Shown: one piece after another, positions 9,129-37,898 of the stretch
How positions within the stretch are numbered: position 1 is the first letter of the stretch
Layout of the letters: each line of letters opens with the position of its first letter
Made by a program: the position numbers and the translations under genes
The notes under the pieces: model-generated
Database searches by the model: none
What the model saw: only the letters and a program-made list of their open reading frames with translations
What the model was told of the DNA's origin: nothing
Virus record (IMG/VR): IMGVR_UViG_3300048813_000140
Location: 114,702-175,837 of that record
Strand: one strand, 5' to 3'
DNA from: a virus
Lineage: Duplodnaviria > Heunggongvirae > Uroviricota > Caudoviricetes
Length of the DNA stretch: 61,136 nt

Positions 9129-9129
9129 C

Positions 9130-14748: not shown

Positions 14749-14757
14749 GTTATATCA
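14749..14757 (-). promoter_or_regulatory. extended -10 element TGATATAAC upstream of groEL
   Basis: no recognisable -35; RBS follows. Confidence 0.45.
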
Positions 14758-14773
14758 CATAAATAAAAGATAG

Positions 14774-15049: not shown

Positions 15050-15122
15050 TTCTTACAAATACATTAAGAATATTGACCCATGGCGTCGTATTCTCCAGTA
15101 CCATCCAGATACATAATATCAC

Positions 15123-15151
15123 TTGACAGAACTTTTGTAAAGAAGTATTAT
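15123..15151 (+). promoter_or_regulatory. sigma70-type promoter
   Basis: TTGACA-17 nt-TATTAT; ATG 6 nt downstream (15158). Confidence 0.7.
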
Positions 15152-15157
15152 ATCAAA

Positions 15158-16669
15158 ATGAGATTTAAAATCGTTAGTCCCACAAAGGCACTAATTTCAA
15201 ATTACAGTGCCCAAGAATTCGAAGACCTTAAGGTTGAGTTGACCTATACCAATACTGCAGCGCAGCATATGGTTAAGCGTCATTTCAATAATCAATGGGC
15301 TCGCAGACAGAATCCTACTGGTTGGCAGATCAAATTAGATGAACTCAAAGCTGAAGTCAAGAAGACTCTGGTTTTCCAGGATGATGATGGTAAATTTTTC
15401 GTAAGGCCTGGATCGCTGCCATATTTAAGCATGTTCTCAAGAGATAATTCAGAAATAACCTATACTTATTCAATACCAAAGAGAATAGCGTGGGCTAAGC
15501 CGCTACCGTTTGAATTGTATCCATATCAGACAGAAAGCTTCGTAAATCTAATCAATGTCCAACACGGTAACGTTGAGTTGTGTACCGGTGCTGGCAAATC
15601 AGCTATCCTGCTGAAATTATGTAGAGAAACTGGATTTAAGTGTGCCATCATAGCGCCGTCTAGGAGTATTTTTAGGGAACTAATGAAGTCCTTTGAAAAA
15701 TATCTTGGCAAAAATAACGTAGGTGGCTTTGGGGATGGCAAAAAGAAGATAGGTAAAAGAATCACTATATGTATAGGCGACAGTCTATCTAATGTCAAAA
15801 AGGGCACAGAGGAATGGGAATTTTTCAGTAAATTAGAGATGATAGCCGTCGATGAATCACACACTTGGGGCGCAGAGACCTTAGAGAATCTTTGTCACGG
15901 TATTTTTGCCGATGTCCCGTATCGATTCTTCATGTCTGGCACACAGACCCGTGGCGACGGTACTGAAAAGTTGCTGCAAAGCATAATTGGACGAACAGTT
16001 CACACACTTGGGACCAAAGAAGCGATTGCTGGTGGTTATATATGTCCACACGATTTCAGTATAGTCGAAATCGAATCCAGTAATCCAAACTATAATAGCG
16101 CGGACATCCTGGAAATGAAGCGAATACATTTTCTCAATAACAGAAACATAGCAGCTTTCGTTAGTAAACTAGCCAATATTGAGGCGACGACACAGCGACG
16201 ACAAATACTTGTTTTAGTTGAGGAATTAACACAAATCAGCATGCTTGTCAAGCTCTTGAAGGTCCCATTCGCCTACGCACATTCTGAAGCTAATAAACAA
16301 AAGTTGGTCGAGCTTGGCCTAGAGAAAGTAGACACTGAAGAATCTGTTGAAAAATTCAACAAAAATGAAGTCCAGGTTCTCATAGGAACGAGTTGTATAG
16401 CTACTGGTACGAACATATATCCAACCCACTATACGATCAACTGGTGCGGCGGAGCGAGCGAAATCAGAACAAAGCAGGGTGCGGTAGGCAGGAGCGTTAG
16501 GCTTGGCAGTCAGAATCCCTACAAAGAGAAGTGTCTGCCAAAGTCCATAGCCCATATATTTGACTTTGACGTTATAGATGCCTACGCATTACAGCATCAT
16601 TTAACTGAAAGAATTACATATTATCAGGATTCAGGAGCATCAATAAGACGTATAAAATTTACAAAATAG
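15158..16669 (+). CDS. superfamily 2 DNA helicase (UvsW-like)
   Basis: LYPYQ, CTGAGKS, AVDESH, MSGT, IATGTNI, QGAVGRSVR; start moved to ATG 15158 after the promoter. Confidence 0.9.
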   Translation: MRFKIVSPTKALISNYSAQEFEDLKVELTYTNTAAQHMVKRHFNNQWARRQNPTGWQIKLDELKAEVKKTLVFQDDDGKFFVRPGSLPYLSMFSRDNSEITYTYSIPKRIAWAKPLPFELYPYQTESFVNLINVQHGNVELCTGAGKSAILLKLCRETGFKCAIIAPSRSIFRELMKSFEKYLGKNNVGGFGDGKKKIGKRITICIGDSLSNVKKGTEEWEFFSKLEMIAVDESHTWGAETLENLCHGIFADVPYRFFMSGTQTRGDGTEKLLQSIIGRTVHTLGTKEAIAGGYICPHDFSIVEIESSNPNYNSADILEMKRIHFLNNRNIAAFVSKLANIEATTQRRQILVLVEELTQISMLVKLLKVPFAYAHSEANKQKLVELGLEKVDTEESVEKFNKNEVQVLIGTSCIATGTNIYPTHYTINWCGGASEIRTKQGAVGRSVRLGSQNPYKEKCLPKSIAHIFDFDVIDAYALQHHLTERITYYQDSGASIRRIKFTK

Positions 16670-16709
16670 TCGAAAAACAAAGATTTTCTAATAAAACTTA
16701 TGGTTTGCA

Positions 16710-16718
16710 TGATATAAT
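16710..16718 (+). promoter_or_regulatory. extended -10 promoter TGATATAAT
   Basis: 5 nt before the ATG of the sigma gene; no SD. Confidence 0.6.
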
Positions 16719-16723
16719 CTATC

Positions 16724-17755
16724 ATGGCAAAACCAAAACGCAACGATTATTTTGACGAATCATTTTATAGGCTAGCAACTGAAGTAACAGCTGCGATAGC
16801 AAAAAACAAAGATGGATCTTCCCAAAAGGAACAGGTCGAAGAGCTTTTAGACGCAGAGAAGAAATTTAAAGATACGATTTTAGAATACAAACAAGCAACG
16901 GAGGTCTATAAGAAATTTTTACAAAGGATCACGCTTGAAAATCGAAATATCTTATCCGCTAGACCATACTTTCGAGAATCTGCCAAAACCTTCAGTAAAT
17001 CCATAACACCGGCCATCAAGTTTGGCAATATTGACGAACTTAAGAAGTTCGACATGAATTATCAGCTTATAAAGTTCATAAAGGACCACTGGCTGGGACC
17101 ATTTCCGAAACGTGCTGAAGCACTCTTTCATAGGGTTCATAAGGCTAGGACGGTATTGGTAGAGAATAATATGCCCTTAGCGATTAACAGGGCAAAACTT
17201 TTTTTTAGAAAAACCCCAAGAAGTCACTTGACTTTAATGGATATGATTGGTATATGTAGTACAGGGTTAGCAGCTGGGATCGATAAATGGATCGGTCCCT
17301 ATAGTACGGTCTTCAGGAGTGTTTGTATCGGACGCATGGTAGGAAATCTAATTGATGCATACAGTGAAACTTTATTACACTTCTATCCAAGCGACAAAAG
17401 AGTGCTATATAAGGCTAATTCGATAAAGGGTAGATGGGGCATTACAGACATTGATGAACTAGCAAAAGCCGTAAATGAATCGTTTAAGGATGATGAAAAA
17501 GAAGGCAAGAGCATACCCAAAGGTGAAGTGATATCTGGAGCGCTGAACGATCTATTGAGTGCTGCGAGTACTGTGAGTGCTGATGCTACGGTTAACGACG
17601 AAGGTTATGGAGTTTACAGTTATACTGCGGATGAATCGCAGAACATGGAAGCGAATTACGTTGAAAAAGAATCAACCATAGAAATGCTTAGGTATGCGAA
17701 ATGTTTACCTATTTTACACCGTAAGATTTTAAAATTGAAAGGGATAAAAATATGA
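16724..17755 (+). CDS. sigma-70-family factor lacking region 4.2
   Basis: region 2-like ARTVLVENNMPLAINRAK..MDMIGICSTGLAAGIDKW; ends at LPILHRKILKLKGIKI, equivalent to region 4.1. Confidence 0.75.
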   Translation: MAKPKRNDYFDESFYRLATEVTAAIAKNKDGSSQKEQVEELLDAEKKFKDTILEYKQATEVYKKFLQRITLENRNILSARPYFRESAKTFSKSITPAIKFGNIDELKKFDMNYQLIKFIKDHWLGPFPKRAEALFHRVHKARTVLVENNMPLAINRAKLFFRKTPRSHLTLMDMIGICSTGLAAGIDKWIGPYSTVFRSVCIGRMVGNLIDAYSETLLHFYPSDKRVLYKANSIKGRWGITDIDELAKAVNESFKDDEKEGKSIPKGEVISGALNDLLSAASTVSADATVNDEGYGVYSYTADESQNMEANYVEKESTIEMLRYAKCLPILHRKILKLKGIKI

Positions 17756-18159
17756 CCGAAGAAGAAAGTTTATCAATGGCAGCATCAATGGCAGCATCCT
17801 TTAAAGATGGAATGGACGCTAAGCCAGTCCCTTGCGCTCCAGGACCCGCATTTTCCATCAATAATAGGATCATCGTGGAAGCCTACGTTTCCGATAGAGC
17901 CCTTAAGACCAAAGAAGTGAATGGTTTTGCTAGCATAGTTCAAAAGATATCGCTAAAAGGTATGAAAGTACTCGTAGAGGCCAGAGTTAACGATGGTAAG
18001 CAACTATGTAGCGTAATTCGAAAAGGCGATCTAGTCTACATTCGTGAAGAACTACTGCACACCTGTGAGTGGGCCAAAAAGAATTATGAAAGTGATGCCA
18101 TAGAAGGCAAATTCATGATCGTTGATCTCGCTCACGTTGAATATGTGGTACCTCAGTGA
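17752..18159 (+). CDS. GroES-like co-chaperonin
   Basis: INNRIIVE..KTKEVNG..IRKGDLVYI..GKFMIVDLAHVEYV follows the Cpn10 pattern. Confidence 0.6.
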   Translation: MTEEESLSMAASMAASFKDGMDAKPVPCAPGPAFSINNRIIVEAYVSDRALKTKEVNGFASIVQKISLKGMKVLVEARVNDGKQLCSVIRKGDLVYIREELLHTCEWAKKNYESDAIEGKFMIVDLAHVEYVVPQ

Positions 18160-19127
18160 GGGTATTGCGGATAGGCGATCCACATGTCAAGCCAACCAAT
18201 ATAGAAGAATGTCATGAATTGTTCAAATTCGTGACTAAGGTTATTTTGGACAAAAAGCCAGATCGAGTAGAGTTGCTTGGAGATCTGTTTCACACGCACG
18301 CCATACTCAGGCTGGAAGTATTGGAATTCTGGAAACTATGGCTGGACAAACTCAGCGACTTAAAAGAAGTTTTTGTTATCGCCGGAAATCATGATCAAAC
18401 TGGAGATCATCACTTAGATACGAATGCTCTTTCTATATTCAAATTGATGAAAAAAGACACTCTACACATTATAGATAGCCCAAAACGGTATGGAATTTTT
18501 GCCTATGCACCATATGAGCATGACCATAATGTTTTTATAGATACGACAAATGACTTGGCAGGCAAAGGAGCCAAAGTTCTAGTCTGCCATCAGACATTCA
18601 CCGGCTCTAAGTACGAAAGCGGGGTCTATGCCCCAGACGGTATGGATGCCAGTGTGCTAAACTACGACTTGATCATTAGTGGTCATATACATTCCAGACA
18701 GCGGTTTGGGAATGTCATCTATCCTGGCACTGCCTATTGGCAATCCAACTCTGACGTAAACGAGTCTAAGGGTCTGTGGCTAGTCGAACACGATGGTAGT
18801 GGCAACATACAATATGAAGAATTTATTGATACTTCAAATGTCTGCAAGCCTATCGTAGGACTTACCTGGACTGAAGGCGAAGAAGCTCCCACGATCCCGG
18901 AAAATGCCAGAGTTAGTATTAAACTTGTAGGATCTTCTGATTGGGTAGTAAAGAACAAAAAACTCCTAAAGGGTCAAGTGTCTGTAAGTACTAAAATCAC
19001 CGATAAAGTCAACAAAGAAGCTAGGCAGACCGGTGGTAATTTCCACGATTTCGTCAGCAATCTATTCATAACAAAAGTAGACCGTAAAGAACTATTGCAG
19101 TATATGAAGGAGAAGGACCTTGGGTGA
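18156..19127 (+). CDS. sbcD: SbcD/Mre11-like metallophosphoesterase nuclease
   Basis: GDPH, GDLFH, GNHD, CHQ, SGHIH motifs. Confidence 0.85.
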   Translation: MRVLRIGDPHVKPTNIEECHELFKFVTKVILDKKPDRVELLGDLFHTHAILRLEVLEFWKLWLDKLSDLKEVFVIAGNHDQTGDHHLDTNALSIFKLMKKDTLHIIDSPKRYGIFAYAPYEHDHNVFIDTTNDLAGKGAKVLVCHQTFTGSKYESGVYAPDGMDASVLNYDLIISGHIHSRQRFGNVIYPGTAYWQSNSDVNESKGLWLVEHDGSGNIQYEEFIDTSNVCKPIVGLTWTEGEEAPTIPENARVSIKLVGSSDWVVKNKKLLKGQVSVSTKITDKVNKEARQTGGNFHDFVSNLFITKVDRKELLQYMKEKDLG

Positions 19128-19500
19128 CGTAGAAAACAAAATTAAGGACATGGCCAAATTGGTCGTTGGTTCTAATAGAATCTCTGAAATGCACAAAAAG
19201 AACCTAGAAATGTGGCCCTTAATCATGTTTAATGGGGTACAAAGCGTCACTATAGACTATGATCTGTCCTATAAGCACGACGTAGACGTAGACAACAAGA
19301 ACAATGTTACCCTTAAGGCGCCAATAAGGAATTCGTTCGTGTCCTACCATCTTACTATGGACGAGAATGCTGAAAATCCCAGCATTGACAAGCGTTTTAA
19401 GGCCTTGGAAGATGCTGTTAGGTCGATTTTTTGGAAAGATCTGTCCATAGAAGTCCATATAAATAATAAAATTGTATACAAATCAAGTAAAAAGCTATGA
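19120..19500 (+). CDS. hypothetical protein
   Basis: 126 aa coupled ORF. Confidence 0.65.
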   Translation: MGDVENKIKDMAKLVVGSNRISEMHKKNLEMWPLIMFNGVQSVTIDYDLSYKHDVDVDNKNNVTLKAPIRNSFVSYHLTMDENAENPSIDKRFKALEDAVRSIFWKDLSIEVHINNKIVYKSSKKL

Positions 19501-20012
19501 AACATTGCAATAATTGTAATTCGAATAAGCCAATTAATAAGTTTTACAAGAATAGCGGATCGAAAGATAATCTTGACACATATTGTAAGGAATGCAGACT
19601 TTCTCGCAATAAAATTTGGCGCAAAAACAATCCAGAAAAAGTCAAAAATGTTCAAAAACAATGGAAATCGAAAAATAGAAAAAGGTACAACGAGATCAAT
19701 TTAAAATGGAAAAAAGATAATACACAAAAAGTTATAGAAAGTGGAATAAAATACAGATATGGATTAGATCCTGTGTCTTACCGTAAAATGCTTGAAGATC
19801 AAGGCCATAAATGTATGATTTGTAATAGACATGAATCTGAGCTAAAACAAAGACTAAATATTGATCACAATCACGAAACTGGTGTCGTAAGAGGGTTGCT
19901 ATGTGATATATGCAATAGGGGCCTAGGATTCTTAGGAGCTGATCGTGGGACACATTTACTTAGAGCTGCCATATTATATCTAGAGAAAGACAAAAAAAAT
20001 GGACGAAAGTAA
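19497..20012 (+). mobile_element. endonuclease VII-type (HNH superfamily) free-standing endonuclease
   Basis: CMICN..LNIDHNHETGVVRGLLCDICNRGLG; N-terminal Zn ribbon. Confidence 0.85.
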
Positions 20013-20652
20013 AGCATTAACCACCATCGACCCATCTAGGATGGACGACATATCTGAAGCGGGTATGAAGAAAATTCAATTATATATTGATCAAGGTCTG
20101 CCTGGTATCATGACGGTGGACACTGACACCCTGTCAAGACTTGGGGAGCTTTATCTATCCGGTAAGACTTACGCCCAAATCTCCAATATTGTACGCGTCG
20201 ATATCACTACCATTATGTATCTCTCTTATAAGCATAACTGGAGCCAGATCAGAAAAGACTACATGGTTGAGTTAGAAGACCAGATGAAGCGTCGGGTTAT
20301 CGAGGCCAAACTTGTAAGTCAAGACTTCCTTTTGCAATTATCTCAGCTTTGGGAAAAGAAAATCGGAAACAAAATCACTCGCTATTTGGCTACCAATAAT
20401 GAAGAATTTGCGGATCAAATCAACTTGAAAGAAATCGATAGATATTTGAAAACTATGGAGTTATTACAGAAGTCCCTTGCGGAACCTAAGTCAGACAGTC
20501 GTGGACCTCTAGTGGGCCTAAATATCGGGGATGGAGCCACCATCACGAGAAAAGGCGATAACGAGCTAGAAATTACTCCAAAACAAAGGGCAATTGGTGA
20601 TATATTAAAACAACATGCAGATATGATGCGTGAAGAAGAAAAAAATAAATAA
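19999..20652 (+). CDS. HTH protein, possible terminase small subunit
   Basis: LYLSGKTYAQIS..VDITTIMYLSYKHNW HTH followed by helical oligomerisation-like region. Confidence 0.45.
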   Translation: MDESKALTTIDPSRMDDISEAGMKKIQLYIDQGLPGIMTVDTDTLSRLGELYLSGKTYAQISNIVRVDITTIMYLSYKHNWSQIRKDYMVELEDQMKRRVIEAKLVSQDFLLQLSQLWEKKIGNKITRYLATNNEEFADQINLKEIDRYLKTMELLQKSLAEPKSDSRGPLVGLNIGDGATITRKGDNELEITPKQRAIGDILKQHADMMREEEKNK

Positions 20653-20671
20653 ACGGAACAAAGGAGAAACC

Positions 20672-21583
20672 GTGATTTCATTGACTAGAGTAAAGATGTT
20701 GGCTATAGGTGCTGTTTTGCTATTATTGGCGTCCTGTGCTTCAAAGAAAACCCAAACAGATGATCTAGAGTGGCCAGCAAACGACATTACTGCTAGTAGC
20801 GTAACGGTTACAAATCTAAAGGCTAACCACGGCGGATCTGGAACTATTATGCGCTCTACACAGCACGAATCATTGGTTTTGACTAATGCTCATGTCTGCG
20901 GAGTCGTAGAAAAAGGCGGTCTAGTCTCAGGTCGTGCGGGTACATTTATGGTTGCAGGGTATAAAAAATCAAACAACCATGATCTATGTATGATTCGAGT
21001 AGAAGGTAATCTAAAATATAACACGACGGTGGCTAAGCATGCACCGGCAGAATTCTACGAAGACGCCGCAATTTCGGGACACCCTGCACTGTATCCTACC
21101 GTTAGAACGTATGGACACTTCTCAGGATTTCAACAAGTTCCCATTATGATGGGCTCTAAACCTTGCACGGCAGAAGATATGGAAAGCCCGGAAAAAGCTT
21201 TCGTATGTGCCTTGGCAGGTGGTCTTCCTATTATTAAGACATTTCACACCCAACTAGTTACGGCCACAATTATGCCTGGATCTAGCGGCAGCGGCGTGTA
21301 CAACGAAAACCTTGAGCTTTCTGGCGTGGTATTTGCTGGACAAGGTGAGTTGGGTTATGCTCTTATAGTCCCATATGCATCTGTCAAGAATTTCATTATC
21401 AAGGAACAATTTACACTTGAGTATACGCGTCCTGATAATACCATGGATCTGTTTGAAGGTAGCGGACAAAGCAAGGTTCATTCTAACGATATCATGGAAA
21501 AATTACACAGTGCGTGCTCATCATCCGACAGAATCAAGATTAAGAATCTATGCGAAATCGTAGAATCTGATATGGTTAAATAA
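20672..21583 (+). CDS. trypsin-like (S1) serine protease, predicted lipoprotein
   Basis: lipobox LLLLASC; catalytic TNAHV, HDLCM, PGSSGS; GTG start after AAGGAG. Confidence 0.85.
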   Translation: MISLTRVKMLAIGAVLLLLASCASKKTQTDDLEWPANDITASSVTVTNLKANHGGSGTIMRSTQHESLVLTNAHVCGVVEKGGLVSGRAGTFMVAGYKKSNNHDLCMIRVEGNLKYNTTVAKHAPAEFYEDAAISGHPALYPTVRTYGHFSGFQQVPIMMGSKPCTAEDMESPEKAFVCALAGGLPIIKTFHTQLVTATIMPGSSGSGVYNENLELSGVVFAGQGELGYALIVPYASVKNFIIKEQFTLEYTRPDNTMDLFEGSGQSKVHSNDIMEKLHSACSSSDRIKIKNLCEIVESDMVK

Positions 21584-21584
21584 C

Positions 21585-21836
21585 ATGCCCCTAATCAATT
21601 ACCTTTGTGAATGTAAAAATTCCAAAAGTAAATTTTACAGGCAAGCCAAGGATGCGCTTGCCTTTATTATTTGTGACAAATGTGGAAAAGAAGCAAAAAA
21701 AAGCTTGTGTTCTCCTTCAACTTCGAGTAAGATAGTAGTTGACAATGGCTTTCAAGCCAGAGCGATAGAAGTAATCCCAGACATCGTTGAGATTAATCAA
21801 AAACGATCAGAAAAAGATTATACACAGGATGATTAG
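21585..21836 (+). CDS. FmdB-like zinc-ribbon protein
   Basis: MPLINYLCEC..CDKCG. Confidence 0.65.
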   Translation: MPLINYLCECKNSKSKFYRQAKDALAFIICDKCGKEAKKSLCSPSTSSKIVVDNGFQARAIEVIPDIVEINQKRSEKDYTQDD

Positions 21837-23902
21837 TGCTATATTTAGAAGAGCTTGCCTTTGTCGGTATCGGTAGATTTGTCGATGAGCAGATCATACC
21901 AATTTCTGAATTAAGAAATTTTACCGAACTAGGCGCTGACAATAAAAATACCAACAGCTCCAGCGGATCAGGTAAGACCACTGTTTTTAACAGCCTGGAC
22001 TACCTACTTGGAATAAATGACTTACCTACGACCGTATTACAATCCAGACTAACCAAAACTGGAATGCGCGTTAGAGGAAAGTTTAAATGGGACGACGTTC
22101 CGCTAGAGATCACCAGAAGTAAGTCAGGTCTTAAGATAGATATAAACTCAGGCGAGACCGTCATAGAAGGCAGCAATGCCCTTGCCGAAGAAAAGCTAGA
22201 CGAAATCCTTGGTATGTCCAGGGACCTATTCAGGAAAATTTTACACAAAAGACAAAAAGAGGGTGGATTCTTCATGGATTTCACCCCAAAGAAAACCCAT
22301 TCATTCTTATCAGATTGTATGAAGTTGGGTGAATTCACCAAAAAAGCCAAAAAAGTAGACGACAAAATTACAACCATATCTGAAAATATGGATCAATCAG
22401 CATCAGAATTGTTAGTTGCCGGTGCAAACCTAAGAGCAACGCAAGATGCCATGTTGTCGCTTGGTTTGCCCCCAGTAAAAGAGATAACCAAGGAGATGAT
22501 ACTTGAACTCAAAGAAAAGTATGACCGATCAGGAATTCGATTCAAAGATGTCGAGTCTAGAATACAACAAGCTGAGCAAGAACAGGCAAAAAGTCGTCCA
22601 AGTACCAATGTCATTCCGTATGATGGAAGAAATAGAGAGTCTCTTGAGAGTCGAAGAAAAGAAATTGAAGCCAAAAGTAGATCGTTGCTTCTCGAAGAGC
22701 AGGATAGACAAACGCAAATCAGGTCTAGGATCTCTGAAAAAAGTATTGAAAGAAGCAAAATTGTATTTAAAATACAGCAAGGTACAACTGCTAAAGGAAA
22801 CGCTACAAAACTTGTTGGTGAAATCAAGCAGATAAGAGACAGCAAATGTCCAACATGCGAACAGGCATGGCATACAGAGTCTTCTAAGGTAACAGAACAG
22901 TCAAAATTATCCGAATTGGCCAAACATAAAGAAGCCATAGTGGAATCTATGCAGGCCGCAGAAAGACAGGACGTATTAAACGTAGAATTAAGCGTCCTAC
23001 AAGAACAGTTGGCGCCTATGGAGAATCACCAGCTATCTTCTCTGAATGAAGAGCTTCTGGAAATTACAAAACTTCTAGCAGAAGAGAAACAAAAAGAGAA
23101 GTCTTGGATAGACAGCTCAAACTACGCAAACAGAATCCTTATGGCCGATTTTGACGCTAAATCGGCAGCCCTACGCTTACAACATGCCCTAGAAATCGGT
23201 CAGGTTCGTGGACAGCTGGATATTGACCGTAGATCATTTGAGCTTGCCGTAGGCAGCCTTAAGGCTTACGAAGAGGCATCTGCCAGATATGAGGCCACCA
23301 AAAACTCACTAAAGATAAAAGAGGAAAATTTTACAAAGCAAAAATTGGCCGCCGAGATCGCCGTTGCCGGATTTGAAAAAGAGTTATTATTAGCTGAAGA
23401 AGTGCGTAAGGCCATAAAAATGTACGTTTCTTACTCATTTGATGGTGCCCTGGAAACCATAGGCGAGAACGCCACTAAAATAATTGCTTGCATTCCCAAT
23501 ATGAGATGTGCTACAATAAGATTCGAAGGTACTAAAGAGACGCAAGACGGTAAAATAAAAGAAGAAGTTAACGCCATCATAGATATGGATGGTGAAATTG
23601 GCATTCCTATTAAGAGTTTATCTGGCGGGGAACGAACTGCGGTAGATTTAGCGGTCGATCTGGCTGTCATAGACTTTATAGAAAGCAAAACAGGAAAAGG
23701 CATAAATATCTTCAACTTAGACGAACCTTTTAGCGGTCTTGGATCTGTAGAAATTGAAATGGTCTTGGAAGTTCTAAAAAACTCCAATACTAATAAAAAG
23801 ATCATAATAGTTGATCACAACCCAGAAGTCAAGCAGATGGTCCATGATAGGATCATAGTAGTTAGAGATGGATTAACTAGCAGAATAGAAAAGGCGGCAT
23901 AA
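21836..23902 (+). CDS. sbcC: SbcC/Rad50-like ABC ATPase
   Basis: Walker A SGSGKTT, coiled coils, Zn hook CPTC, signature LSGGE, Walker B LDEPF, DH. Confidence 0.9.
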   Translation: MLYLEELAFVGIGRFVDEQIIPISELRNFTELGADNKNTNSSSGSGKTTVFNSLDYLLGINDLPTTVLQSRLTKTGMRVRGKFKWDDVPLEITRSKSGLKIDINSGETVIEGSNALAEEKLDEILGMSRDLFRKILHKRQKEGGFFMDFTPKKTHSFLSDCMKLGEFTKKAKKVDDKITTISENMDQSASELLVAGANLRATQDAMLSLGLPPVKEITKEMILELKEKYDRSGIRFKDVESRIQQAEQEQAKSRPSTNVIPYDGRNRESLESRRKEIEAKSRSLLLEEQDRQTQIRSRISEKSIERSKIVFKIQQGTTAKGNATKLVGEIKQIRDSKCPTCEQAWHTESSKVTEQSKLSELAKHKEAIVESMQAAERQDVLNVELSVLQEQLAPMENHQLSSLNEELLEITKLLAEEKQKEKSWIDSSNYANRILMADFDAKSAALRLQHALEIGQVRGQLDIDRRSFELAVGSLKAYEEASARYEATKNSLKIKEENFTKQKLAAEIAVAGFEKELLLAEEVRKAIKMYVSYSFDGALETIGENATKIIACIPNMRCATIRFEGTKETQDGKIKEEVNAIIDMDGEIGIPIKSLSGGERTAVDLAVDLAVIDFIESKTGKGINIFNLDEPFSGLGSVEIEMVLEVLKNSNTNKKIIIVDHNPEVKQMVHDRIIVVRDGLTSRIEKAA

Positions 23903-24243
23903 TGTCTGATCCAGCTTTAATTGAGCAAGAATTGAGACAGTTTTTAGAGATTGAAGACAATTTAGCAAAAACCGATAGATTACACTATCTTATGGCCATA
24001 GTGAATAAACACTTCGCCATAGATAAAATAGATCACACCATCAACGGATACGACCTTGGGGAAATCATTGGGCATGCAAAAAATCTTGCTGGCAGCACTC
24101 AAGCCCCTCTGCAGATTTCCAAACTTGAGGTCAAAGGCGTAGAGCTTAGCTATGTGTTGATTATGGAAGCTTTTACGAATTATTTAAACAGAAATAAGTT
24201 ATTGAAACGGTTACCAAAATTCGATTACAAAAACAGGAGATAA
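23902..24243 (+). CDS. hypothetical protein
   Basis: 113 aa, TAATG coupled. Confidence 0.65.
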   Translation: MSDPALIEQELRQFLEIEDNLAKTDRLHYLMAIVNKHFAIDKIDHTINGYDLGEIIGHAKNLAGSTQAPLQISKLEVKGVELSYVLIMEAFTNYLNRNKLLKRLPKFDYKNRR

Positions 24244-24244
24244 G

Positions 24245-24523
24245 ATGGAGAAAAGTTTTGAGTCTGGAAAAGACGTCCCATTTTCGTTAAGGGTAAAAGA
24301 TGTTGATTGTCACCAAAGCGCTGAATGGATGTACGTTACGAAAATTTATGACGACGGTGGAGTAGACGCGTCTGGTGATAAATCCGAAGGTCTGATTTTT
24401 ACCAAGAAAGACTTACCAGAAATAAAACGAGCTATTGTTTATGAATTACAAAGACTCACATTGCCAGTAAAAAAGGATGGAAGTTTATCCTTTGTAGGCT
24501 TTGAACTAGAAGAAATAAAATAA
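24245..24523 (+). CDS. hypothetical protein
   Basis: 92 aa, AGGAG RBS. Confidence 0.65.
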   Translation: MEKSFESGKDVPFSLRVKDVDCHQSAEWMYVTKIYDDGGVDASGDKSEGLIFTKKDLPEIKRAIVYELQRLTLPVKKDGSLSFVGFELEEIK

Positions 24524-24532
24524 GGAGATAAA

Positions 24533-24823
24533 ATGGGACGACCTAAATCACAACCAAAGACTTTGAGAGAAAAAACAGAGAAAGAATTTCCAGATTTCGT
24601 AAAAGAAGTTGATGGACTGAACATCCAGGAAATGGAAAAACGAATCTCAAACTACGCAAAAGAGCTGGAAGATTCTGAACAACATAAAGAAGATAATCAA
24701 GCCCTGAAAGATGCCCATGCGGAAGTTACAGAACTTGCTGGTCCCTATAAAGATGTCAAAAAGGCAGTCAAAGTTAAAACTCGCTATCTTATCGCTTCTA
24801 TTCGGGAAAAAGGCGGCCAATAA
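24533..24823 (+). CDS. coiled-coil hypothetical protein
   Basis: 96 aa, AAGGAG RBS. Confidence 0.7.
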   Translation: MGRPKSQPKTLREKTEKEFPDFVKEVDGLNIQEMEKRISNYAKELEDSEQHKEDNQALKDAHAEVTELAGPYKDVKKAVKVKTRYLIASIREKGGQ

Positions 24824-25017
24824 TGACTAAAGTAATAAACATGAGCACCGTTCTGTCATTGGCAGATGTTGTGCAACAAGAGAGACTCAATCAGCACATT
24901 CAGAAGCAAAACGCTCAAGGTTGGGAATTGATGTCGAGTGCGCTAGAAACCACAGGCATTCAAGAATTGCTGCTACTATTTTGGAAGAAGACGGTCGAAG
25001 AAAATCATGGATGTTGA
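24823..25017 (+). CDS. DUF4177-like small protein
   Basis: LNQHIQKQNAQGWELMS pattern. Confidence 0.5.
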   Translation: MTKVINMSTVLSLADVVQQERLNQHIQKQNAQGWELMSSALETTGIQELLLLFWKKTVEENHGC

Positions 25018-25624
25018 GCGGGTCCTTGGCCTGGATATGAGTACTAAAACCGGATTTACGCTATTGATTAGTGATGCTTCCGGTATGGTATTAGAGGAAT
25101 ATGGCCAGATACCACAGATCCATACTCCTGAAGGTGCCTACCCAGAATCCTTCATTATTTGGTCCCACGCTGTAGTTGATGAAATTGTAAAAGTTATAGA
25201 GCGATTGAAACCAAACGTTTTGGTGATAGAAGAAACTGCAGCTGGAAGCAAGGCAATATACACACAAAAGATCCTTGAATGGATTCATTACTTAGTTGCG
25301 AAATATATTGTTGACAAACGTCTCAAAGTGGTATATATTATGACTGGACAGTGGAGAAGCGAAATAGGATGCTCCATGAGTAAAGAAGAGTCCAAGCATA
25401 ATAAAACTGTAAAAGAGTACAAAAAAAAGAATTCTACCAGTTTAGCTTATGATATAAGCGGTAAGAGAATTGGCAAGATAACGAAGAAACACGTCAACGT
25501 GCGCAGAATCAATGAGATCTTTGGTAAGTATCTGAAAACTCCATTGAAAATGAAAGACGAAGACGCTGCAGATAGCCTAGGACTTGCCTACGCTTATCAC
25601 TTGAGAAGGATAGCTAGAAAATGA
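25007..25624 (+). CDS. ruvC: RuvC-like Holliday junction resolvase
   Basis: VLGLDMSTKTG, LVIEE, DEDAADSLGLA. Confidence 0.8.
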   Translation: MDVERVLGLDMSTKTGFTLLISDASGMVLEEYGQIPQIHTPEGAYPESFIIWSHAVVDEIVKVIERLKPNVLVIEETAAGSKAIYTQKILEWIHYLVAKYIVDKRLKVVYIMTGQWRSEIGCSMSKEESKHNKTVKEYKKKNSTSLAYDISGKRIGKITKKHVNVRRINEIFGKYLKTPLKMKDEDAADSLGLAYAYHLRRIARK

Positions 25625-26568
25625 GTAACTATTTAGATGAAGAAGAAGAACCATTTAGTGACCAGCCAGACGAGATTGTAGAAGGCGAACAGGATCCTGC
25701 AGTATCACTTAAGCTAAATAGACCTACCGCCAACCTTCCCAAGCCTGCACCGGCATCCGCTCCTGTAGAAGAGGAAGTGGAAGAAGAAGTTGAAGAGATT
25801 GCCGAAGAAGTAGAAAATGAAAATTTTGCCGAAGTGTTCAGCGATGCAAACCTGCGCATTGAACAAGGTCGTCTTTATCAGATGGTAATGAATAACAGCC
25901 TATTTGAGGGCTTAGATGCAGATCCAAAAGCTATTCAGAATGTAGAAAAAGAGATACGCAAGTTCGCCAGAGAACGTATGGAAATAATGCTAGGAATGCG
26001 ACAAGAAGCACCTAAAGAGACAGCGATGTCCATGGAAGGATTTCCATTTAATGCTCTGGAAGTAGAAGTACTCAAATCCTTGGCCTCAGTTGCAACAAAG
26101 GGTGCCTCCCTTGAAGCCGCGCCGTTTAGTGGAGCCGTAGCTAAGAAAAAGACATTGACGCCTATAAACGCCAATAGAACGCCTCACAAACCTGCACCTG
26201 CAGTTAAGCCAGTTGTAAAATCTACAAAACCACTGAACACCAAACCGGCCAAACCTATGGTTAGAAAAGTAGATGCGGCAATCCAACGTATTTTGGATGA
26301 AGAGGGCGTTACCCTGGATCAAGTCAATGAAGTATTTGACCCCAACCACAAGGTTTTGAGCAAGTCTACGGATGAATTGACCGAAGAAGAGATAGTAGAA
26401 AGAAATAAACAAGCCAACGGTAGAGTAGGCAAACAAGTTGCATCAAGGAATGCGATTCCAATGCCTTCTGAAGATCAAATGGCCGGTATTTATCAGCAGA
26501 GAGCCGAGCAGGCAAATGCTAATCCGCAAATGAAAATGATAATGGGTTACTTAAATAATAAGAAATAG
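25621..26568 (+). CDS. hypothetical protein (acidic N-terminus, K/P-rich linker)
   Basis: 315 aa ORF. Confidence 0.75.
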   Translation: MSNYLDEEEEPFSDQPDEIVEGEQDPAVSLKLNRPTANLPKPAPASAPVEEEVEEEVEEIAEEVENENFAEVFSDANLRIEQGRLYQMVMNNSLFEGLDADPKAIQNVEKEIRKFARERMEIMLGMRQEAPKETAMSMEGFPFNALEVEVLKSLASVATKGASLEAAPFSGAVAKKKTLTPINANRTPHKPAPAVKPVVKSTKPLNTKPAKPMVRKVDAAIQRILDEEGVTLDQVNEVFDPNHKVLSKSTDELTEEEIVERNKQANGRVGKQVASRNAIPMPSEDQMAGIYQQRAEQANANPQMKMIMGYLNNKK

Positions 26569-26612
26569 TATTAATTAACAACTACTTAGAAAGTAGAAAG
26601 AGGAGAATAAAA

Positions 26613-27278
26613 ATGGCAAATGAACCACAAGCACCTGCAGCAGCTCAACAAGCGCCCAAGGTACGAACCGCATCGCAACGGTTGGATGATCTCGAAAAAG
26701 GCTTGATGGGCCTTTATCAAGCAGCAGACAATATCGCTCGTGATACCACGACGCTTAAAGAAGCTGTCAAGATTTTGGGTAACAAAATCGACGCGATTGT
26801 GAAGCTCACCGTAAAAGGTGAAGATTTGTCCGATGACAGCATTACGAAAGTGATGATTCAAAATAATGTCGACGATTTGAAATCCAAAGTAGATGGATTG
26901 GTCGCAAGTGGCCAGTTGGCACTTACTTCGGACCCCTTAACTCTCAACACGTTTGTTGTTGGTAGAGAAGTTAACGCCGAAGGCGAAGTTGCTAATCCCC
27001 GATTGCAGTTTGTAGTTGGTAGCCTAAATGCTGATTTGCAGCCGAAACTTGTCGGCAAAACAGCTGGCGATGTTATTGAATTTCAAGAAGGAAAATTGAA
27101 ATTTGAAATTCTGGAAGCATACACGATTGTGCCTCCGGCACCTCCGGCAGCTCCCGACGCTCCACCGGCTGATGCTGCCCCTGCAGCCGACGCAACTCCG
27201 GCTACGCCCGCTCCGGCTGCCACGCAATCTTCTACGGATGATCAAGCAGCAGCAGCTCCTACAACTCCAGCAACTTAA
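26613..27278 (+). CDS. coiled-coil + FKBP/GreA-C-like domain protein with Ala/Pro tail
   Basis: QFVVGSLNADLQPKLVGKTAGDVIEF..KFEILE resembles the FKBP-like fold of trigger factor/GreA-C; AAGGAG RBS. Confidence 0.5.
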   Translation: MANEPQAPAAAQQAPKVRTASQRLDDLEKGLMGLYQAADNIARDTTTLKEAVKILGNKIDAIVKLTVKGEDLSDDSITKVMIQNNVDDLKSKVDGLVASGQLALTSDPLTLNTFVVGREVNAEGEVANPRLQFVVGSLNADLQPKLVGKTAGDVIEFQEGKLKFEILEAYTIVPPAPPAAPDAPPADAAPAADATPATPAPAATQSSTDDQAAAAPTTPAT

Positions 27279-27293
27279 ACAAAGCGGGACATT

Positions 27294-28916
27294 ATGGACC
27301 AAAATAAGAAGCTTAAACAGGCGGACATGGACAAGTCTGCCAAAAATAAGGCACGTTCTAAAATACTCAAGGCATACACTAGGTTAGCCGGTAAGAACAG
27401 TGCATACCCCACTCGATTAGAAATGAAAGAGTTGGGCTTTAATAGAGATACAATAAGATATTATTTTGGTAACATGGTCGCCCTTAAGAAGACTGCTAAA
27501 GAGTTTGATCCTTCGGCTTTTGAAAAAATTATAGACATTGAAATATTCAATGACGATGCGTTTTCAGAAATCGAAAGAAAAGCAAAAAAGCACAAAGTCT
27601 ATGTTATTCAATCAGTTGTGGCTGGAGCCCCTATTCATGACAATTTGTTTAAGTCTGTGAAAGCATTCTTAAGTAAGAAAAATGGCATGCATTTGATAAT
27701 TCCAGCCGATTACGCCTTGCAAGATATAGACCCTGTGCTTATGGCCGATACCGACATAAATATCGTATTTAGGACACTTAATCTAAATTCCAACATTTGC
27801 GTCGATCCCATCAAAATTGATCCAAAACAAGTAGATCCAGTGATTGGACTGTCAGATTTAGCCCATTCCGAAACCGTGATTATCGGTTCCCCAAAGCAAC
27901 GTAGAATTTCGGTATCCAATTCAAATAAGAAATTGTCCAGGATGATTCAATCAACTGGAGCACTTACGAAACCCAACTACACACCTAGAAGCGGCGTTCC
28001 CCTAAGAAGGGACACTTTAGCGGAAAAGCACCACAGAATGGGCGGAGTGATCGTCGAGATCGTTGATAATAAATTGTACCACTTCAGGCATTTTGAAATG
28101 TGTAAAGATGGGTCCTTCAATGACCTTTTTTACAACTACAGTAAAGACGGCATCAAATACGTGGGCTGCGAAGCTATTATCCAAGGCGATAAACATGTAG
28201 GCGATACGGACCCAGCTGTAAATGCTGCAGTAGATGAGATGTGTAAAATTGGCAAACCCAAGTACCGCGTAGAGCATGATTTCTTTAACGGTAAGAGTGT
28301 AAATCCCCACGGCGAAGATGATCACATTGAACTGGCCCAATTGGCAGAGCAAGGATTACTAAACCTAAGAGATGAACTAGAGATGTGCGCCGACGAAATC
28401 AAGAGGGTCATGAAGCTTAAATCCTCTAAAACACACGTAATTGTAGAATCTAACCATAATGATTGGATTAGACAATATCTCAAAAAAGGTAAATTCAGTA
28501 ACGAAAACAGGCTTATATGTGCTAAACTCCTAGCTGCAGTAATCGAGGGTAAACAACCCTTTTCAGCTGCAATGGAACTATTCGGCGTTAAGGCTGGACC
28601 TGAACTTATCTTCCTAGAGTTGGACGACGACTTCATAGTAGAAGGCGTAGCCCTAGGCAATCACGGCCATCTTGGGTCTAACGGACATAGAAATCCTGGA
28701 TGTAAGGGTATGTTCAAGGCTTACGGCAAATGCTCATTTGGTCACACACATCACGGTGAAATTTGGCATGATGCTCAAAACGTAGGGACTTCAACCTATA
28801 TGAAACTTAGTTACAATAAAGGAGCCTCTTCTTGGGATAACTCTCAAGGAATACTGTATGCAGGCGGCACAAGGCAACTTGTAAACGTAATATGCGGCAA
28901 ATGGCGAGCAGAATAA
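27294..28916 (+). CDS. T5 A1-like metallophosphoesterase nuclease
   Basis: STGALTKPNY..HHRMGGVIVE, GDKHVG, ESNHND, HGHLGSNG, GHTH, YNKGASSW. Confidence 0.65.
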   Translation: MDQNKKLKQADMDKSAKNKARSKILKAYTRLAGKNSAYPTRLEMKELGFNRDTIRYYFGNMVALKKTAKEFDPSAFEKIIDIEIFNDDAFSEIERKAKKHKVYVIQSVVAGAPIHDNLFKSVKAFLSKKNGMHLIIPADYALQDIDPVLMADTDINIVFRTLNLNSNICVDPIKIDPKQVDPVIGLSDLAHSETVIIGSPKQRRISVSNSNKKLSRMIQSTGALTKPNYTPRSGVPLRRDTLAEKHHRMGGVIVEIVDNKLYHFRHFEMCKDGSFNDLFYNYSKDGIKYVGCEAIIQGDKHVGDTDPAVNAAVDEMCKIGKPKYRVEHDFFNGKSVNPHGEDDHIELAQLAEQGLLNLRDELEMCADEIKRVMKLKSSKTHVIVESNHNDWIRQYLKKGKFSNENRLICAKLLAAVIEGKQPFSAAMELFGVKAGPELIFLELDDDFIVEGVALGNHGHLGSNGHRNPGCKGMFKAYGKCSFGHTHHGEIWHDAQNVGTSTYMKLSYNKGASSWDNSQGILYAGGTRQLVNVICGKWRAE

Positions 28917-28919
28917 TGC

Positions 28920-29312
28920 ATGGACAAAAATTTCTACAACTTAGAGACCATCGAAGCTGAGCTTTTTAATATAGAATACAACATTGATCTGGTCAACATA
29001 AACTTGGCCAGAGCAGAATCGGATATTACGACATTGCAACACCTTCAACTCAAAATTGAAGAGAATATAGATGCCCTAAAACATAACGGTATACCCCTGA
29101 TTGCCGAGTTTAAGAGGGCCAAAGAAGATCTGGACAGGGTTAAGCTTAGTTTAGTTACGCTAACTAACAATAGAGAAGTTTTCAATAAGCAGGTCATAAC
29201 CCTGCAAGAATCATTTGAAAAGTGCAAAAATCGAAAAACCTTAGCTATAAAGTTCGGACAATCAAAAATAGTACAGGGCAACTTTGGGAGCAAAAATGGC
29301 AGACAAGACTGA
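28920..29312 (+). CDS. coiled-coil hypothetical protein
   Basis: 130 aa with heptad pattern. Confidence 0.65.
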   Translation: MDKNFYNLETIEAELFNIEYNIDLVNINLARAESDITTLQHLQLKIEENIDALKHNGIPLIAEFKRAKEDLDRVKLSLVTLTNNREVFNKQVITLQESFEKCKNRKTLAIKFGQSKIVQGNFGSKNGRQD

Positions 29313-29523
29313 GCTGCAAAATAAAATAAACACGGAAGAAGACTACATCAGATGTCCTAAATTCCATAATTCTATGGCCAAATTTTTAGCCAACGCTAAA
29401 AATTCCGAGGGTGTCAAAAACAACATCATAGCTAGATTGCTCATGATGTCAAAAGAAGAAGTCGAAAAACTATACGAAGAAGCTGTGCAAATGCTTAAAG
29501 ACGACATGTTGGACGTAGAATGA
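29296..29523 (+). CDS. stand-alone sigma region 4.2-like HTH protein
   Basis: IARLLMMSKEEVEKLYEEAVQMLK fits the IAxxLxxSxxxVxxxxxxAxxxLK register; GGGAG RBS before ATG 29296. Confidence 0.55.
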   Translation: MADKTELQNKINTEEDYIRCPKFHNSMAKFLANAKNSEGVKNNIIARLLMMSKEEVEKLYEEAVQMLKDDMLDVE

Positions 29524-29696
29524 CAGTAGCAGAATTAATCAAAGAACTACAGAAGATGCCAGAACAAGACGTAGAGGTTTGGCTAGCAATACCTATTGAT
29601 GACGACGATTCTGGAGAACAAAATATTTACCCAATAATTTACGTTCAGGATTACCCCACTACTAGGTTTCCAGGAAGCGTACAGATAAAAGCATGA
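29520..29696 (+). CDS. hypothetical protein (58 aa, MTVAELIKELQKMP)
   Basis: read manually; ATGA overlaps at both ends; common small phage protein N-terminus. Confidence 0.65.
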   Translation: MTVAELIKELQKMPEQDVEVWLAIPIDDDDSGEQNIYPIIYVQDYPTTRFPGSVQIKA

Positions 29697-29929
29697 GCAA
29701 TAATTCTGAAGAATTTTTAGAAGAATTTCACAAGCATACTATCTCAGACTCAAATCAAAGCTACCTGTTATTGACAGATCAGGCGTTATACATGCTTAGT
29801 GGCGTATTTGAGAATTGGCCATTCTTAGAGGGAGCAATAGATAAGACCAATAAGTATCGTATAAATATACGTAAATACGATTTTGAGTTATTCTTTCTTC
29901 CTGCGATTAAGAGACTTTATGAAAATTGA
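29693..29929 (+). CDS. hypothetical protein
   Basis: 78 aa coupled ORF. Confidence 0.55.
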   Translation: MSNNSEEFLEEFHKHTISDSNQSYLLLTDQALYMLSGVFENWPFLEGAIDKTNKYRINIRKYDFELFFLPAIKRLYEN

Positions 29930-35790: not shown

Positions 35791-36838
35791 GTGTTATTGC
35801 GGAAGATATATAGCTATAAGGGTTCTTAAAAAACACTTAGAATCCAATATTGTGGACCATGATCGATCCTTTGTAGATTGGTGTACACACATAATAAATC
35901 TTATGAGAGTTAATAGATGGGCATGGGAAAAATCTAAAGGGGTAAATGCTATCAGCGATAGATTTTGGGGTTTTAGAGTACTGTCTAAAGAATGTTTAAT
36001 AGAGGATTTCGCATTTGAATCGCCAAGACCTAAAGGCGTTGCCCCAAAACCTCAATATGATAAAATGTCTAAAAATAGACTTGGTGACGGAAATCCTGCA
36101 TTCAAAAATATAGAAATCTACGATATGGAAGAATTGAAAATATTTGCACAACACGAATTCCAAAAATTAGGAAACAATGAGAGACGATTTCGTTTGTTAG
36201 AAAACATACTAAGAGAAAAATTTCCAGATTTTAGATATAATTTCTATGGAAAATTTAGAGAAAACGACGAAACAAGAGGACACAATTCTAGAAATAAAAT
36301 TTTGGCATTTTTATTAGACAAAGACATTTTTTGGATCGTGGATGCTAAAGCCAAGGATCGCGGCAAATTAATAAAAGTAGGTCAAGACAAATCTCCCAAA
36401 AAGCATTTAATTCTAAACGCTGGGAAAAATGTATTAAAAGGACATACCAGCTTGCCACATAAAATATTGTACAATATGGTTAAGTTCTTAGATCCTATGG
36501 CGAAAATAGAAAAACAAATAGATTATAGAGATACATGGAAAAGTTACGATATTTACAGTCCAGAAAAGAATATTTTAATTGAAATGCATGGCCATATGTG
36601 GCACGACACAAATAAATGTAAGAAAAACCTCATACCGTTAGTTTTTAAAAACGTAAAGAATGACGAAATAAAGAAAGAGTTAGCTCTTTTAAATAGTTTT
36701 AGGTACGAAGTATTCTGGGATGATCAAACCGATATGTGGGAAAATAAATTAGAGGAAATATATGGAAGAAAATCAAAAACCTATGAAGAAGCTTTTTGTG
36801 AAGAGAATAATAAAAAAAGAACAAAAAAGGGTATATGA
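35771..36838 (+). mobile_element. Vsr-like/DUF559 (EDxHD-type) free-standing homing endonuclease
   Basis: YDIYSPEKNILIEMHGHMWHD..DEIKKELA..FRYEVFWD; sits between the dnaE halves; more AT-rich than dnaE. Confidence 0.8.
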
Positions 36839-36896
36839 TATAGAAATGCCATCTCATCACAATTTTGTACTTGAAAATGGCGTAGTAGCCCACAAC
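36762..36896 (+). mobile_element. split intein, C-fragment (45 aa)
   Basis: VYDIEMPSHHNFVLENGVVAHN then Cys+1; GAGG RBS before ATG 36762. Confidence 0.9.
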
Positions 36897-37898
36897 TGTT
36901 CGCATTCTACAGCTTACGCCATTATCGCATACGCGTCTATGTACCTGAAATATCACTATCCTTTGGATTGGTGGTCGGCAGTACTCACAAATGCTACAGA
37001 ACAAGAAATCACCGGCAAATTCTGGCCATATGTCAAAGATATGGTCACGGCACCCGATATCAACCTATCTTCCGACGTAATGGTTCCAGACCATTTGAAC
37101 AATAAGATCAGATCTAAACTTGGCGTTATTCGTGGCATGGGCGATGCAACTCTTGACCCTATCGTCGCGGGCAGGCCTTACAAAGACATCAGGGATTACG
37201 TCGACAAAGAAGTGGCTGGCGATAGCCTTACCCACAAGCTTATACATGTTGGAGTCCTAGACAGTTTGTTCCCTCCAAGGACCAACCTACTGGAAAAGCT
37301 CAAGATGTACGAAGACGCCGTAGAAGCCAAAGCATTTGCGGATAAGTCCAAGAAAGCCAAAGCTGAAGGTAGGAAAATCAGAGCCTTGCAACCAAAACCA
37401 GGCAAGATTCCAGAAGAGTACATTGGATTAGAAAAGACTCCTATGAAAGAAGCTGCTATGAAAAAGGCAGTTCTTCCCAGCTTACCCATCGACTTGCATG
37501 CTCTTGGTAAGAGTCATTCCAGAGTCCTTGATACAAGTATGGATCTTCCGATGGTTCTGAATAGTAAAAATTACAAAAGTCTTCTGGTGAGCGGCGATAA
37601 GCTAAAAAGAATTGACGAGTTGGACGGCGATAGCCTTAATAAGGATCTATACATTGCGTCAACCTGCTTCATCGTAAAAGCTGAAGAGTTCTCATTTCAA
37701 AATGGCACCAAACGCGCATTGAAGCTGATATTGGACGTTGATGGCTACGTATCTGAAAAGGTTAAATGGCCTAGCTACGATTCTGGCGAACTCGAATACC
37801 CTAAGGAACTCAAACGTGGGGTTATTGCAACAATTTTTTTCAAGAAACGTGTGGGCAAAAAGGACGTTTCTATGACCGATATTTTTGTAGAGTCTTGA
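36762..37898 (+). CDS. dnaE: DNA polymerase III alpha subunit, C-terminal part preceded by C-intein
   Basis: after the intein CSHSTAYAIIAY..LKYHYP, PDINLS, LGVIRGMG (HhH) and a C-terminal OB-like region. Confidence 0.9.
   Translation: MEENQKPMKKLFVKRIIKKEQKRVYDIEMPSHHNFVLENGVVAHNCSHSTAYAIIAYASMYLKYHYPLDWWSAVLTNATEQEITGKFWPYVKDMVTAPDINLSSDVMVPDHLNNKIRSKLGVIRGMGDATLDPIVAGRPYKDIRDYVDKEVAGDSLTHKLIHVGVLDSLFPPRTNLLEKLKMYEDAVEAKAFADKSKKAKAEGRKIRALQPKPGKIPEEYIGLEKTPMKEAAMKKAVLPSLPIDLHALGKSHSRVLDTSMDLPMVLNSKNYKSLLVSGDKLKRIDELDGDSLNKDLYIASTCFIVKAEEFSFQNGTKRALKLILDVDGYVSEKVKWPSYDSGELEYPKELKRGVIATIFFKKRVGKKDVSMTDIFVES

Follow-up and report, generated by a model that had tools for sequence, protein, structure and literature searches.

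A truncated phage sigma factor and a separate region 4.2-like protein as a possible two-part sigma in Mx1-like phages

The locus described here raises the question of whether a phage sigma factor that stops just before the helix-turn-helix (HTH) by which the -35 promoter element is read is completed by a second, separately encoded protein. It is located in a stretch of 61,136 nucleotides (nt), positions 114,702 to 175,837 of the IMG/VR virus record IMGVR_UViG_3300048813_000140, which is referred to here as the window and which makes up the last 61 kb of the 175,837-bp record; the record is estimated to be complete. Two open reading frames (ORFs) are in question, namely, ORF 16724, which encodes a protein of 343 amino acids (aa), and ORF 29296, which is located 11.5 kb downstream of it and encodes a protein of 75 aa. 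A preliminary description, made from the sequence alone, had read the first as a sigma factor lacking region 4.2 and the second as a stand-alone sigma-4-like HTH protein; both ORFs are located where it had placed them, and ORF 16724 ends with the C-terminal string that it had quoted. We are highly confident that ORF 16724 encodes a sigma factor without the HTH, and we consider it probable that the small protein is derived from sigma region 4.2. By analogy with gp55 and gp33 of phage T4, the two may function as a two-polypeptide sigma on the host RNA polymerase, a reading to which we assign a probability of roughly 0.48.

The sigma gene and its early stop

The following features were defined at the sigma gene.

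16724-17755, plus strand: sigma-70-family gene, 343 aa, with regions 1.2, 2, 3, and 4.1 and the first helix of region 4.2, without the 4.2 HTH
17645-17755, plus strand: sigma-4 "stump," residues 308 to 343, delimited by the secondary structure of the AlphaFold (AF2) model, a hidden Markov model (HMM) alignment to sigma-70 residues 551 to 562, and the family-wide end point

Searched as a single sequence, ORF 16724 matches no sigma family in Pfam, PHROGs, or NCBIfam and no PDB sequence, and the Pfam models Sigma70_r2, r3, and r4 find it neither in this way nor in a six-frame search of the genome. Single-sequence searches of Pfam, PHROGs, and NCBIfam likewise returned no sigma family for ORF 29296, and hence the resemblance of both proteins to sigma factors is visible by profiles only. 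At the profile level, RpoD/SigA sequences from the PDB match a 66-member family profile of ORF 16724 with E values of 9e-10 to 1e-8, and PDB sequences consisting of region 2 fragments alone match it at an E value of ~6e-9. The profile is aligned on residues 370 to 562 of E. coli sigma-70, that is, from region 2.1 through regions 3 and 4.1 to the helix preceding the 4.2 HTH; in addition, TIGR02997 matches residues 133 to 189 of ORF 16724 weakly. The AF2 model of the protein has a predicted local distance difference test (pLDDT) score of 90.1, and the top Foldseek matches, aligned over their whole length, are primary sigma factors without exception, led by Thermus and E. coli sigma-A chains, with ~340 aligned columns, a probability of 1.00, and a template modeling (TM) score of 0.42. 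The protein is therefore most like RpoD/SigA and RpoS, which provide its best profile and fold matches and with which regions 1.2, 2, 3, and 4.1 are collinear. It differs from RpoD/SigA in ending before the 4.2 HTH, in the residues at the positions of sigma-70 W433/W434 and H455/E458, and in escaping the Pfam sigma models as a single sequence.

ORF 16724 has more than 1000 homologues of near-identical length and 402 cluster representatives at 50% identity (E <= 0.001). The sole cultured relative in the phage collection searched is Myxococcus phage Mx1, in which the homologue (WNM70309) is annotated as "putative RNA polymerase sigma factor" and the gene order helicase, sigma factor, small hypothetical gene, and phosphoesterase matches that of window positions 15080 to 19127; the announcement of the Mx1 genome contains no discussion of this sigma. 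For comparisons between genomes, we used a set of 23 related records, consisting of Mx1 and 22 IMG/VR contigs of 128 to 177 kb, all of which hold the sigma gene, with sigma identities ranging from 75% down to 35%.

The claim of the preliminary description that ORF 16724 lacks only the 4.2 HTH was borne out both by the RpoD/SigA profile match and by the point at which the protein ends. In the AF2 model, the stump consists of helices 308-325 and 330-338, which correspond to region 4.1 and to the first of the region 4.2 helices, and the family-profile HMM alignment places the C-terminal tail on sigma-70 residues 551 to 562, the helix that directly precedes the HTH of region 4.2. No more than 3 residues follow the nearly invariant G340, a glycine with which the first region 4.2 helix is closed. 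Among the 265 relatives that reach the end of the profile, the end position is identical in 189 and lies within 0 to 8 residues of it in 259, and none of the 265 carries an HTH extension. Nearly all of the best 150 of the 402 cluster representatives align to the last residues of ORF 16724. Fused "Rosetta stone" forms were also absent, with 0 of 269 sigma-like proteins matching the profile of the small protein, and the longer proteins among these 269 either carry an intein or extend into a short tail of unrelated sequence. Stopping early characterizes the family and is not an accident of one genome.

Within the retained regions, the aromatic pair of region 2.3/2.4 (W433/W434 in sigma-70) and the His/Glu pair of region 3.0 (H455/E458) are replaced in the family, and regions 2.1 and 2.2 are strongly conserved, as is a family-specific region 3.0 motif. 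The conserved motif that stands in place of the W433/W434 and H455/E458 counterparts suggests that the family has a promoter specificity of its own. The same replacements, together with the missing 4.2 HTH, could be taken to mean that ORF 16724 is no longer an initiation factor and acts, for example, as an inhibitor that binds RNA polymerase and occludes the site of the host sigma. This seems very improbable in light of the full sigma architecture, the high model confidence, and the strong conservation of regions 2.1 and 2.2 and of the family-specific region 3.0 motif; moreover, the conserved promoter-like motif found before late genes, described below, would still need a reader.

Some relatives in the sigma family (P0232, P0244, and other members of 589 to 824 aa) carry an intein near the junction of regions 2.4 and 3.0, at an insertion point corresponding to approximately residues 215 to 228 of ORF 16724 (window positions ~17366 to 17407). 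In these relatives, Intein_splicing is matched with an E value of ~1e-6, which is under the curated cutoff, and the sigma matches appear as two separate stretches; inteins in sigma factors are apparently unusual. Directly downstream of the sigma gene, the ATG of a 135-aa ORF (17752-18159) overlaps the sigma stop codon (ATGA), and Mx1 has a counterpart at the same position. This ORF was considered as a partner of the sigma, to whose gene it is translationally coupled, but it was rejected, as neither an HTH nor a sigma signal was seen in it and the database searches gave no match.

A small acidic core protein and its likeness to region 4.2

The small gene and its HTH-like part are located as follows.

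29296-29523, plus strand: small acidic core gene, 75 aa, encoding a stand-alone sigma-4.2-like protein
29401-29511, plus strand: HTH half of the small protein, residues 36 to 72, in register with the sigma region 4.2 HTH and with an acidic recognition helix

A GGGAG ribosome-binding site is located 5 nt upstream of the ATG of ORF 29296, and the TTG at position 29284, which was the start given by the ORF finder, is not supported by the homologues. Co-occurrence across related genomes had been set as a check beforehand in the preliminary description, and exactly one copy of the gene was found in each of the sigma-carrying records (23/23), in agreement with a single-sequence search. By the same search, the nearby small ORFs 29520-29696, 29693-29929, and 24245-24523 were each present in 0/23 records and the adjacent 130-aa coiled-coil ORF was present in 13/23, and thus, compared with its neighbors, the 75-aa gene is an unusually constrained core gene. 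A first word-based search recovered 24 homologues of the small protein, and a total of 360 proteins were obtained after a profile search. In Mx1, the gene is located directly upstream of the DNA polymerase gene, between it and the next hypothetical gene, with local synteny as in the window. The Mx1 homologue (positions 157477 to 157704 of that record, minus strand) is unannotated in the public record. The three small ORFs present in 0/23 records are lineage-specific ORFans within an otherwise conserved replication module.

An in-register match of ORF 29296 to sigma region 4.2 had been proposed from the single sequence, and it holds at the profile level. When the 155-member small family was aligned by hhalign with six E. 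coli sigma-4 regions, residues 36 to 72 of the small protein were placed on sigma-70 residues 567 to 603 with a probability of 73% and an E value of 3e-5, versus a probability of no more than 0.5% for the control templates (1 reversed and 30 column-shuffled). The small protein was also aligned in register with FliA residues 201 to 238 (E value of 6.5e-4) and with RpoD residues 576 to 600. The best PDB sequence matches of the family profile are to region 4.2 of sigma-28-type factors, in register and at a nonsignificant E value of 0.17, and the sub-threshold Pfam matches among 41 family members are to PhyR sigma-like (8 members), Sigma70_r4 (6 members; best E value, 0.006), GerE (3 members), and r4_2 (1 member). 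As a single sequence, ORF 29296 gave nothing usable and no sigma family in Pfam, PHROGs, NCBIfam, or PDB searches, and a genome search with PF04545 gave no match. Its neighbors in the ESM Atlas are viral clusters of 74 to 79 aa in which 63 to 83% of the members have PF04545, and the structural neighbors of a low-confidence ESM Atlas model are extracytoplasmic function (ECF) sigma-4 domains, with TM scores of 0.5 to 0.64. Designation of the small protein as the "missing piece" of the sigma is apt in part: residues 36 to 72 match sigma-4.2, but the N-terminal 35 residues have no sigma counterpart, and extending the hhalign match into this half yielded low-confidence columns only and a long gap.

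The recognition helix of the small protein was correctly described as acidic. At the positions of sigma-70 R584, E585, R586, and R588, the share of acidic residues among the 155 members is 86%, 92%, 70%, and 80%, respectively; the positions of the arginines by which sigma-70 contacts the -35 element are mostly occupied by glutamate, and the median net charge of the family is -4. Given this helix and this net charge, canonical -35 reading by the small protein is, to judge from its sequence, very unlikely. The charge also bears on a different explanation, according to which the small ORF encodes an ordinary HTH regulator of the LuxR/GerE/sigma-4 superfamily that represses or activates replication-module genes, is conserved as a core gene, and is unrelated to the truncated sigma. 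The gene does belong to the replication module, where it neighbors the DNA polymerase genes, with synteny from Mx1 to the present phage; GerE and other HTH families are among its sub-threshold matches; and two basic residues, R47 and R/K68, are conserved. However, because the helix is acidic, with 70 to 92% acidic residues at the four positions that correspond to the beginning of the -35 recognition helix of sigma-70 (R584 to R588) and a net charge of -4, a DNA-binding regulator of the ordinary kind becomes less likely, and a protein of 75 residues has no obvious dimerization module. We regard this explanation as distinctly unlikely.

A one-box promoter-like motif and a possible two-subunit sigma

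K-mer enrichment in upstream regions revealed one motif, which is close to GTGATATAA and has the form TG-n-TATAA, i.e., that of an extended -10 element. Genome-wide, 30 matches to this motif were found, 19 of them within the 7.8% of the genome that is intergenic, and 15 matches are located no more than 150 nt upstream of co-oriented genes. The window contains 13 matches versus 4.4 expected. Of the 74 matches in 28 related loci, 31 are in intergenic DNA, which makes up 8.1% of these loci. No position between 6 and 45 nt upstream of the motif holds more than 0.39 bits of information, and there is no -35 signal. Among the genes served by the motif are those for a baseplate-containing giant protein, a tail-spike-like protein, GroEL, and endonuclease VII as well as the sigma gene itself. 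Copies in the window include the following.

16709-16717, plus strand: one-box motif ATGATATAA, ending 6 nt before the ATG of the sigma gene
14750-14758, minus strand: one-box motif GTGATATAA, 27 nt upstream of the GroEL-like gene
9121-9129, minus strand: one-box motif upstream of the endonuclease VII-like gene, in the head/packaging block
55242-55250, minus strand: one-box motif upstream of a 391-aa gene, in the tail block
60647-60655, minus strand: one-box motif ATGATATAA, upstream of a 793-aa virion structural/tail-spike-like gene
2213-2221, plus strand: one-box motif GTGATATAC, 17 nt upstream of a 106-aa gene

Variants of the motif are also present upstream of the sigma gene in approximately half of 50 relatives. 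The motif is enriched upstream of late-type genes, and ORF 16724 is a candidate for its reader, as promoters of one box would suit a sigma that lacks the part for the -35 element. No Shine-Dalgarno sequence is located between the motif at 16709-16717 and the sigma ATG (window positions 16709 to 16726); either a transcript starting from this motif would have little or no leader, or the annotated sigma start is wrong. Outside the window, a perfect copy of the motif is located 8 nt upstream of the start of a 71-aa HTH protein (genome positions 39851 to 40066, minus strand) that matches phrog_10100 (E value of 6e-5) and, weakly, Sigma70_r4_2 (E value of 0.04); beyond this weak region 4 match, searches of the 176-kb genome for further Pfam sigma domains were negative.

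In the best-supported reading, that of a two-polypeptide sigma, the system could work as follows. ORF 16724 is the phage's own sigma; it keeps regions 1.2, 2, and 3, the parts for core docking and for reading and melting the -10 region, together with the first two helices of domain 4, and it stops in the loop that would lead into the -35-reading HTH. The small protein of 75 residues is probably descended from the missing HTH, with glutamates replacing the DNA-touching arginines, such that the usual DNA reading would have been lost. The large subunit would select one-box, extended -10-like promoters (consensus close to GTGATATAA) before late and structural genes, and the small acidic subunit would be placed at the beta-flap/sigma-4 position, where it would either complete the stump or bind the flap alone. 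In doing so, the small subunit may keep region 4 of the host sigma off the flap, and the resulting holoenzyme would need no -35 box. We give slightly less than an even chance to the proposition that the sigma and the small protein act together; contact between the two proteins or with the flap, reading of the motif by the sigma, and the timing are all inferred. The more specific idea that domain 4 is assembled from two polypeptides, with the stump and the HTH of the small protein folding together around the tip of the beta-flap, is more tentative still.

Several observations weigh against a two-part sigma. Where positions were compared, the sigma gene and the small gene are 10 to 15 kb apart and never adjacent, and in three distant relatives, one of them Mx1, they are encoded on opposite strands. 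Their co-occurrence inside a single phage lineage establishes no more than core-gene status for each, and an unrelated protein of 311 aa, P0402 (43123-44058), is likewise present in 23/23 records. With regard to the small protein, neither ORF 29296 nor any of the 41 family members searched reaches the gathering score of Pfam PF04545 or PF08281, and the most conserved motif of the family lies within the N-terminal 35 residues that have no counterpart in sigma. Its AF2 model is weak (pLDDT of 68) and gave no clear match by Foldseek in the PDB or by VIA-align among 48,161 chains, although a model this weak does not turn the absence of a fold match into evidence against a sigma-4 fold. The promoter motif resembles an ordinary extended -10 element that could be read by the host primary sigma, and it also precedes the sigma gene itself. 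Furthermore, gp55 (phrog_234) and gp33 (PF16805 and phrog_254) have no match at an E value of <=10 in the whole genome, and hhalign against the single T4 gp55 and gp33 sequences gave probabilities of no more than 1%. A gp45-type clamp was not matched in the genome by PF09116 or PF02916, although a divergent clamp is possible; since no sliding clamp was found, coupling to a clamp is unsupported.

The main rival is that the sigma works alone, either on extended -10 promoters or in the manner of basal transcription by gp55, and that the small protein is an independent host-takeover factor. Such a factor could be a decoy on the host beta-flap or could soak up binders of sigma region 4 and thereby shut down -35-dependent host transcription. 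A sigma acting alone would fit the one-box motif and its lack of a -35 signal, and an independent role of the small protein is consistent with its acidic and probably non-DNA-binding HTH, with the two genes being unlinked and, in distant relatives, on opposite strands, with the lack of a fused form among the 269 sigma-like proteins, and with the weak PhyR sigma-like matches. Beyond these sub-threshold matches, nothing was found in favor of the earlier suggestion that the small protein is a decoy for anti-sigma factors. Against a sigma that acts alone, two conserved domain 4 helices that end exactly at the pre-HTH loop would be difficult to account for without a partner to complete them; in addition, wherever the sigma is present, the small protein is kept. 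Taken together, a lone sigma accompanied by an independent flap-binding or decoy factor seems to us somewhat unlikely.

Known split sigmas and the surrounding genome

For a two-polypeptide sigma made up of ORF 16724 and ORF 29296, the T4 gp55/gp33 pair, to which the preliminary description had already pointed, is an apt analogy. In T4 late transcription, the minimal sigma gp55 acts with gp33, an acidic co-activator bound to the beta-flap, and with the gp45 clamp. T4 gp33 is described as a sigma-4 mimic that reads no DNA, and gp55 and gp33 together as a split sigma that reads no -35 sequence (PMC2988020). In T4, a sigma without a -35 reader, gp55, is paired with the separate small acidic gp33 (PMC2988020), and ORF 16724 and ORF 29296 would correspond to these two proteins. 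The motif described here consists of one box and may mark promoters comparable to the one-box late promoters of T4, and the gene order in the window, with the sigma followed by the 135-aa ORF, an SbcD-like gene, and later an SbcC-like gene, resembles the T4 order 55, a-gt, 47, 46; Mx1 also has the order sigma, small ORF, and SbcD-like phosphoesterase. The two systems differ in that gp55 is a sigma-2-only protein, whereas ORF 16724 is a near-complete primary-type sigma (regions 1.2 to 4.1), and in that the small protein described here still aligns with the sigma-4.2 HTH.

A laboratory construct of sigma-70 that is cut before region 4.2 can initiate at extended -10 promoters of the TGnTATAAT type, and the motif found here has this form. 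That construct is engineered, whereas ORF 16724 belongs to a natural family with a conserved separate sigma-4.2-like protein. In SigO-RsoA of Bacillus subtilis and Sig7-Sig8 of Tn916, the two genes are adjacent, and the domain 4 partner reads the -35 box. In contrast, the cut in the present phage lies inside domain 4, the genes are separated by 11.5 kb, and the HTH is apparently unable to read DNA. For SigO-RsoA (YvrI-YvrHa), Sig7-Sig8, and gp33-gp34 of SPO1, a sigma function spread over two polypeptides has been described; in SigO-RsoA, and presumably in Sig7-Sig8, the split separates domain 2 from domain 4 (bioRxiv 10.64898/2026.10.01.756105). Full-text searches returned no published report of Mx1-like phages in which a truncated sigma is accompanied by a separate sigma-4-like protein.

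Few split sigmas are on record, namely, T4 gp55/gp33, SPO1 gp33/gp34, SigO-RsoA, and, recently, Tn916 Sig7-8. For the question of how the minimal gp55 and the sigma-4 mimic gp33 of T4 originated from an ordinary sigma, the phages described here are of interest as a large family in which the big subunit is still a primary-type sigma and the small one still aligns with region 4.2. If both proteins cooperate, an intermediate stage would be seen, and domain 4 would be divisible between its second and third helices. If domain 4 is indeed assembled from two polypeptides, this would be a natural sigma cut at a previously undescribed point, giving a -35-blind holoenzyme dedicated to one-box promoters, and, in evolutionary terms, it would be an intermediate that stands between the complete sigmas and gp55/gp33 of T4. 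As Mx1 grows on Myxococcus xanthus, the idea is testable at the bench.

The gene content of the window is that of a large myovirus, with genes for a portal, a terminase, a GroEL-like chaperonin, a helicase, and SbcD- and SbcC-like nuclease subunits and, in addition, for RuvC, a family B DNA polymerase, UvsX, a DnaB-like helicase, and tail proteins. The 311-aa P0402, for which the ESM Atlas provides a faint lead (Sigma70_r2 in 15% of one cluster), was considered as a sigma and rejected as a demonstrated one, its family profile having no similarity to PDB sigmas, to the ORF 16724 family, or to gp55; its Mx1 homologue is a 541-aa hypothetical protein. It is also of note that the family B DNA polymerase is split over two ORFs in the window, 32932-35790 and 36762-37898, and that an HNH-endonuclease-like ORF (35771-36838) is located between them and overlaps both.

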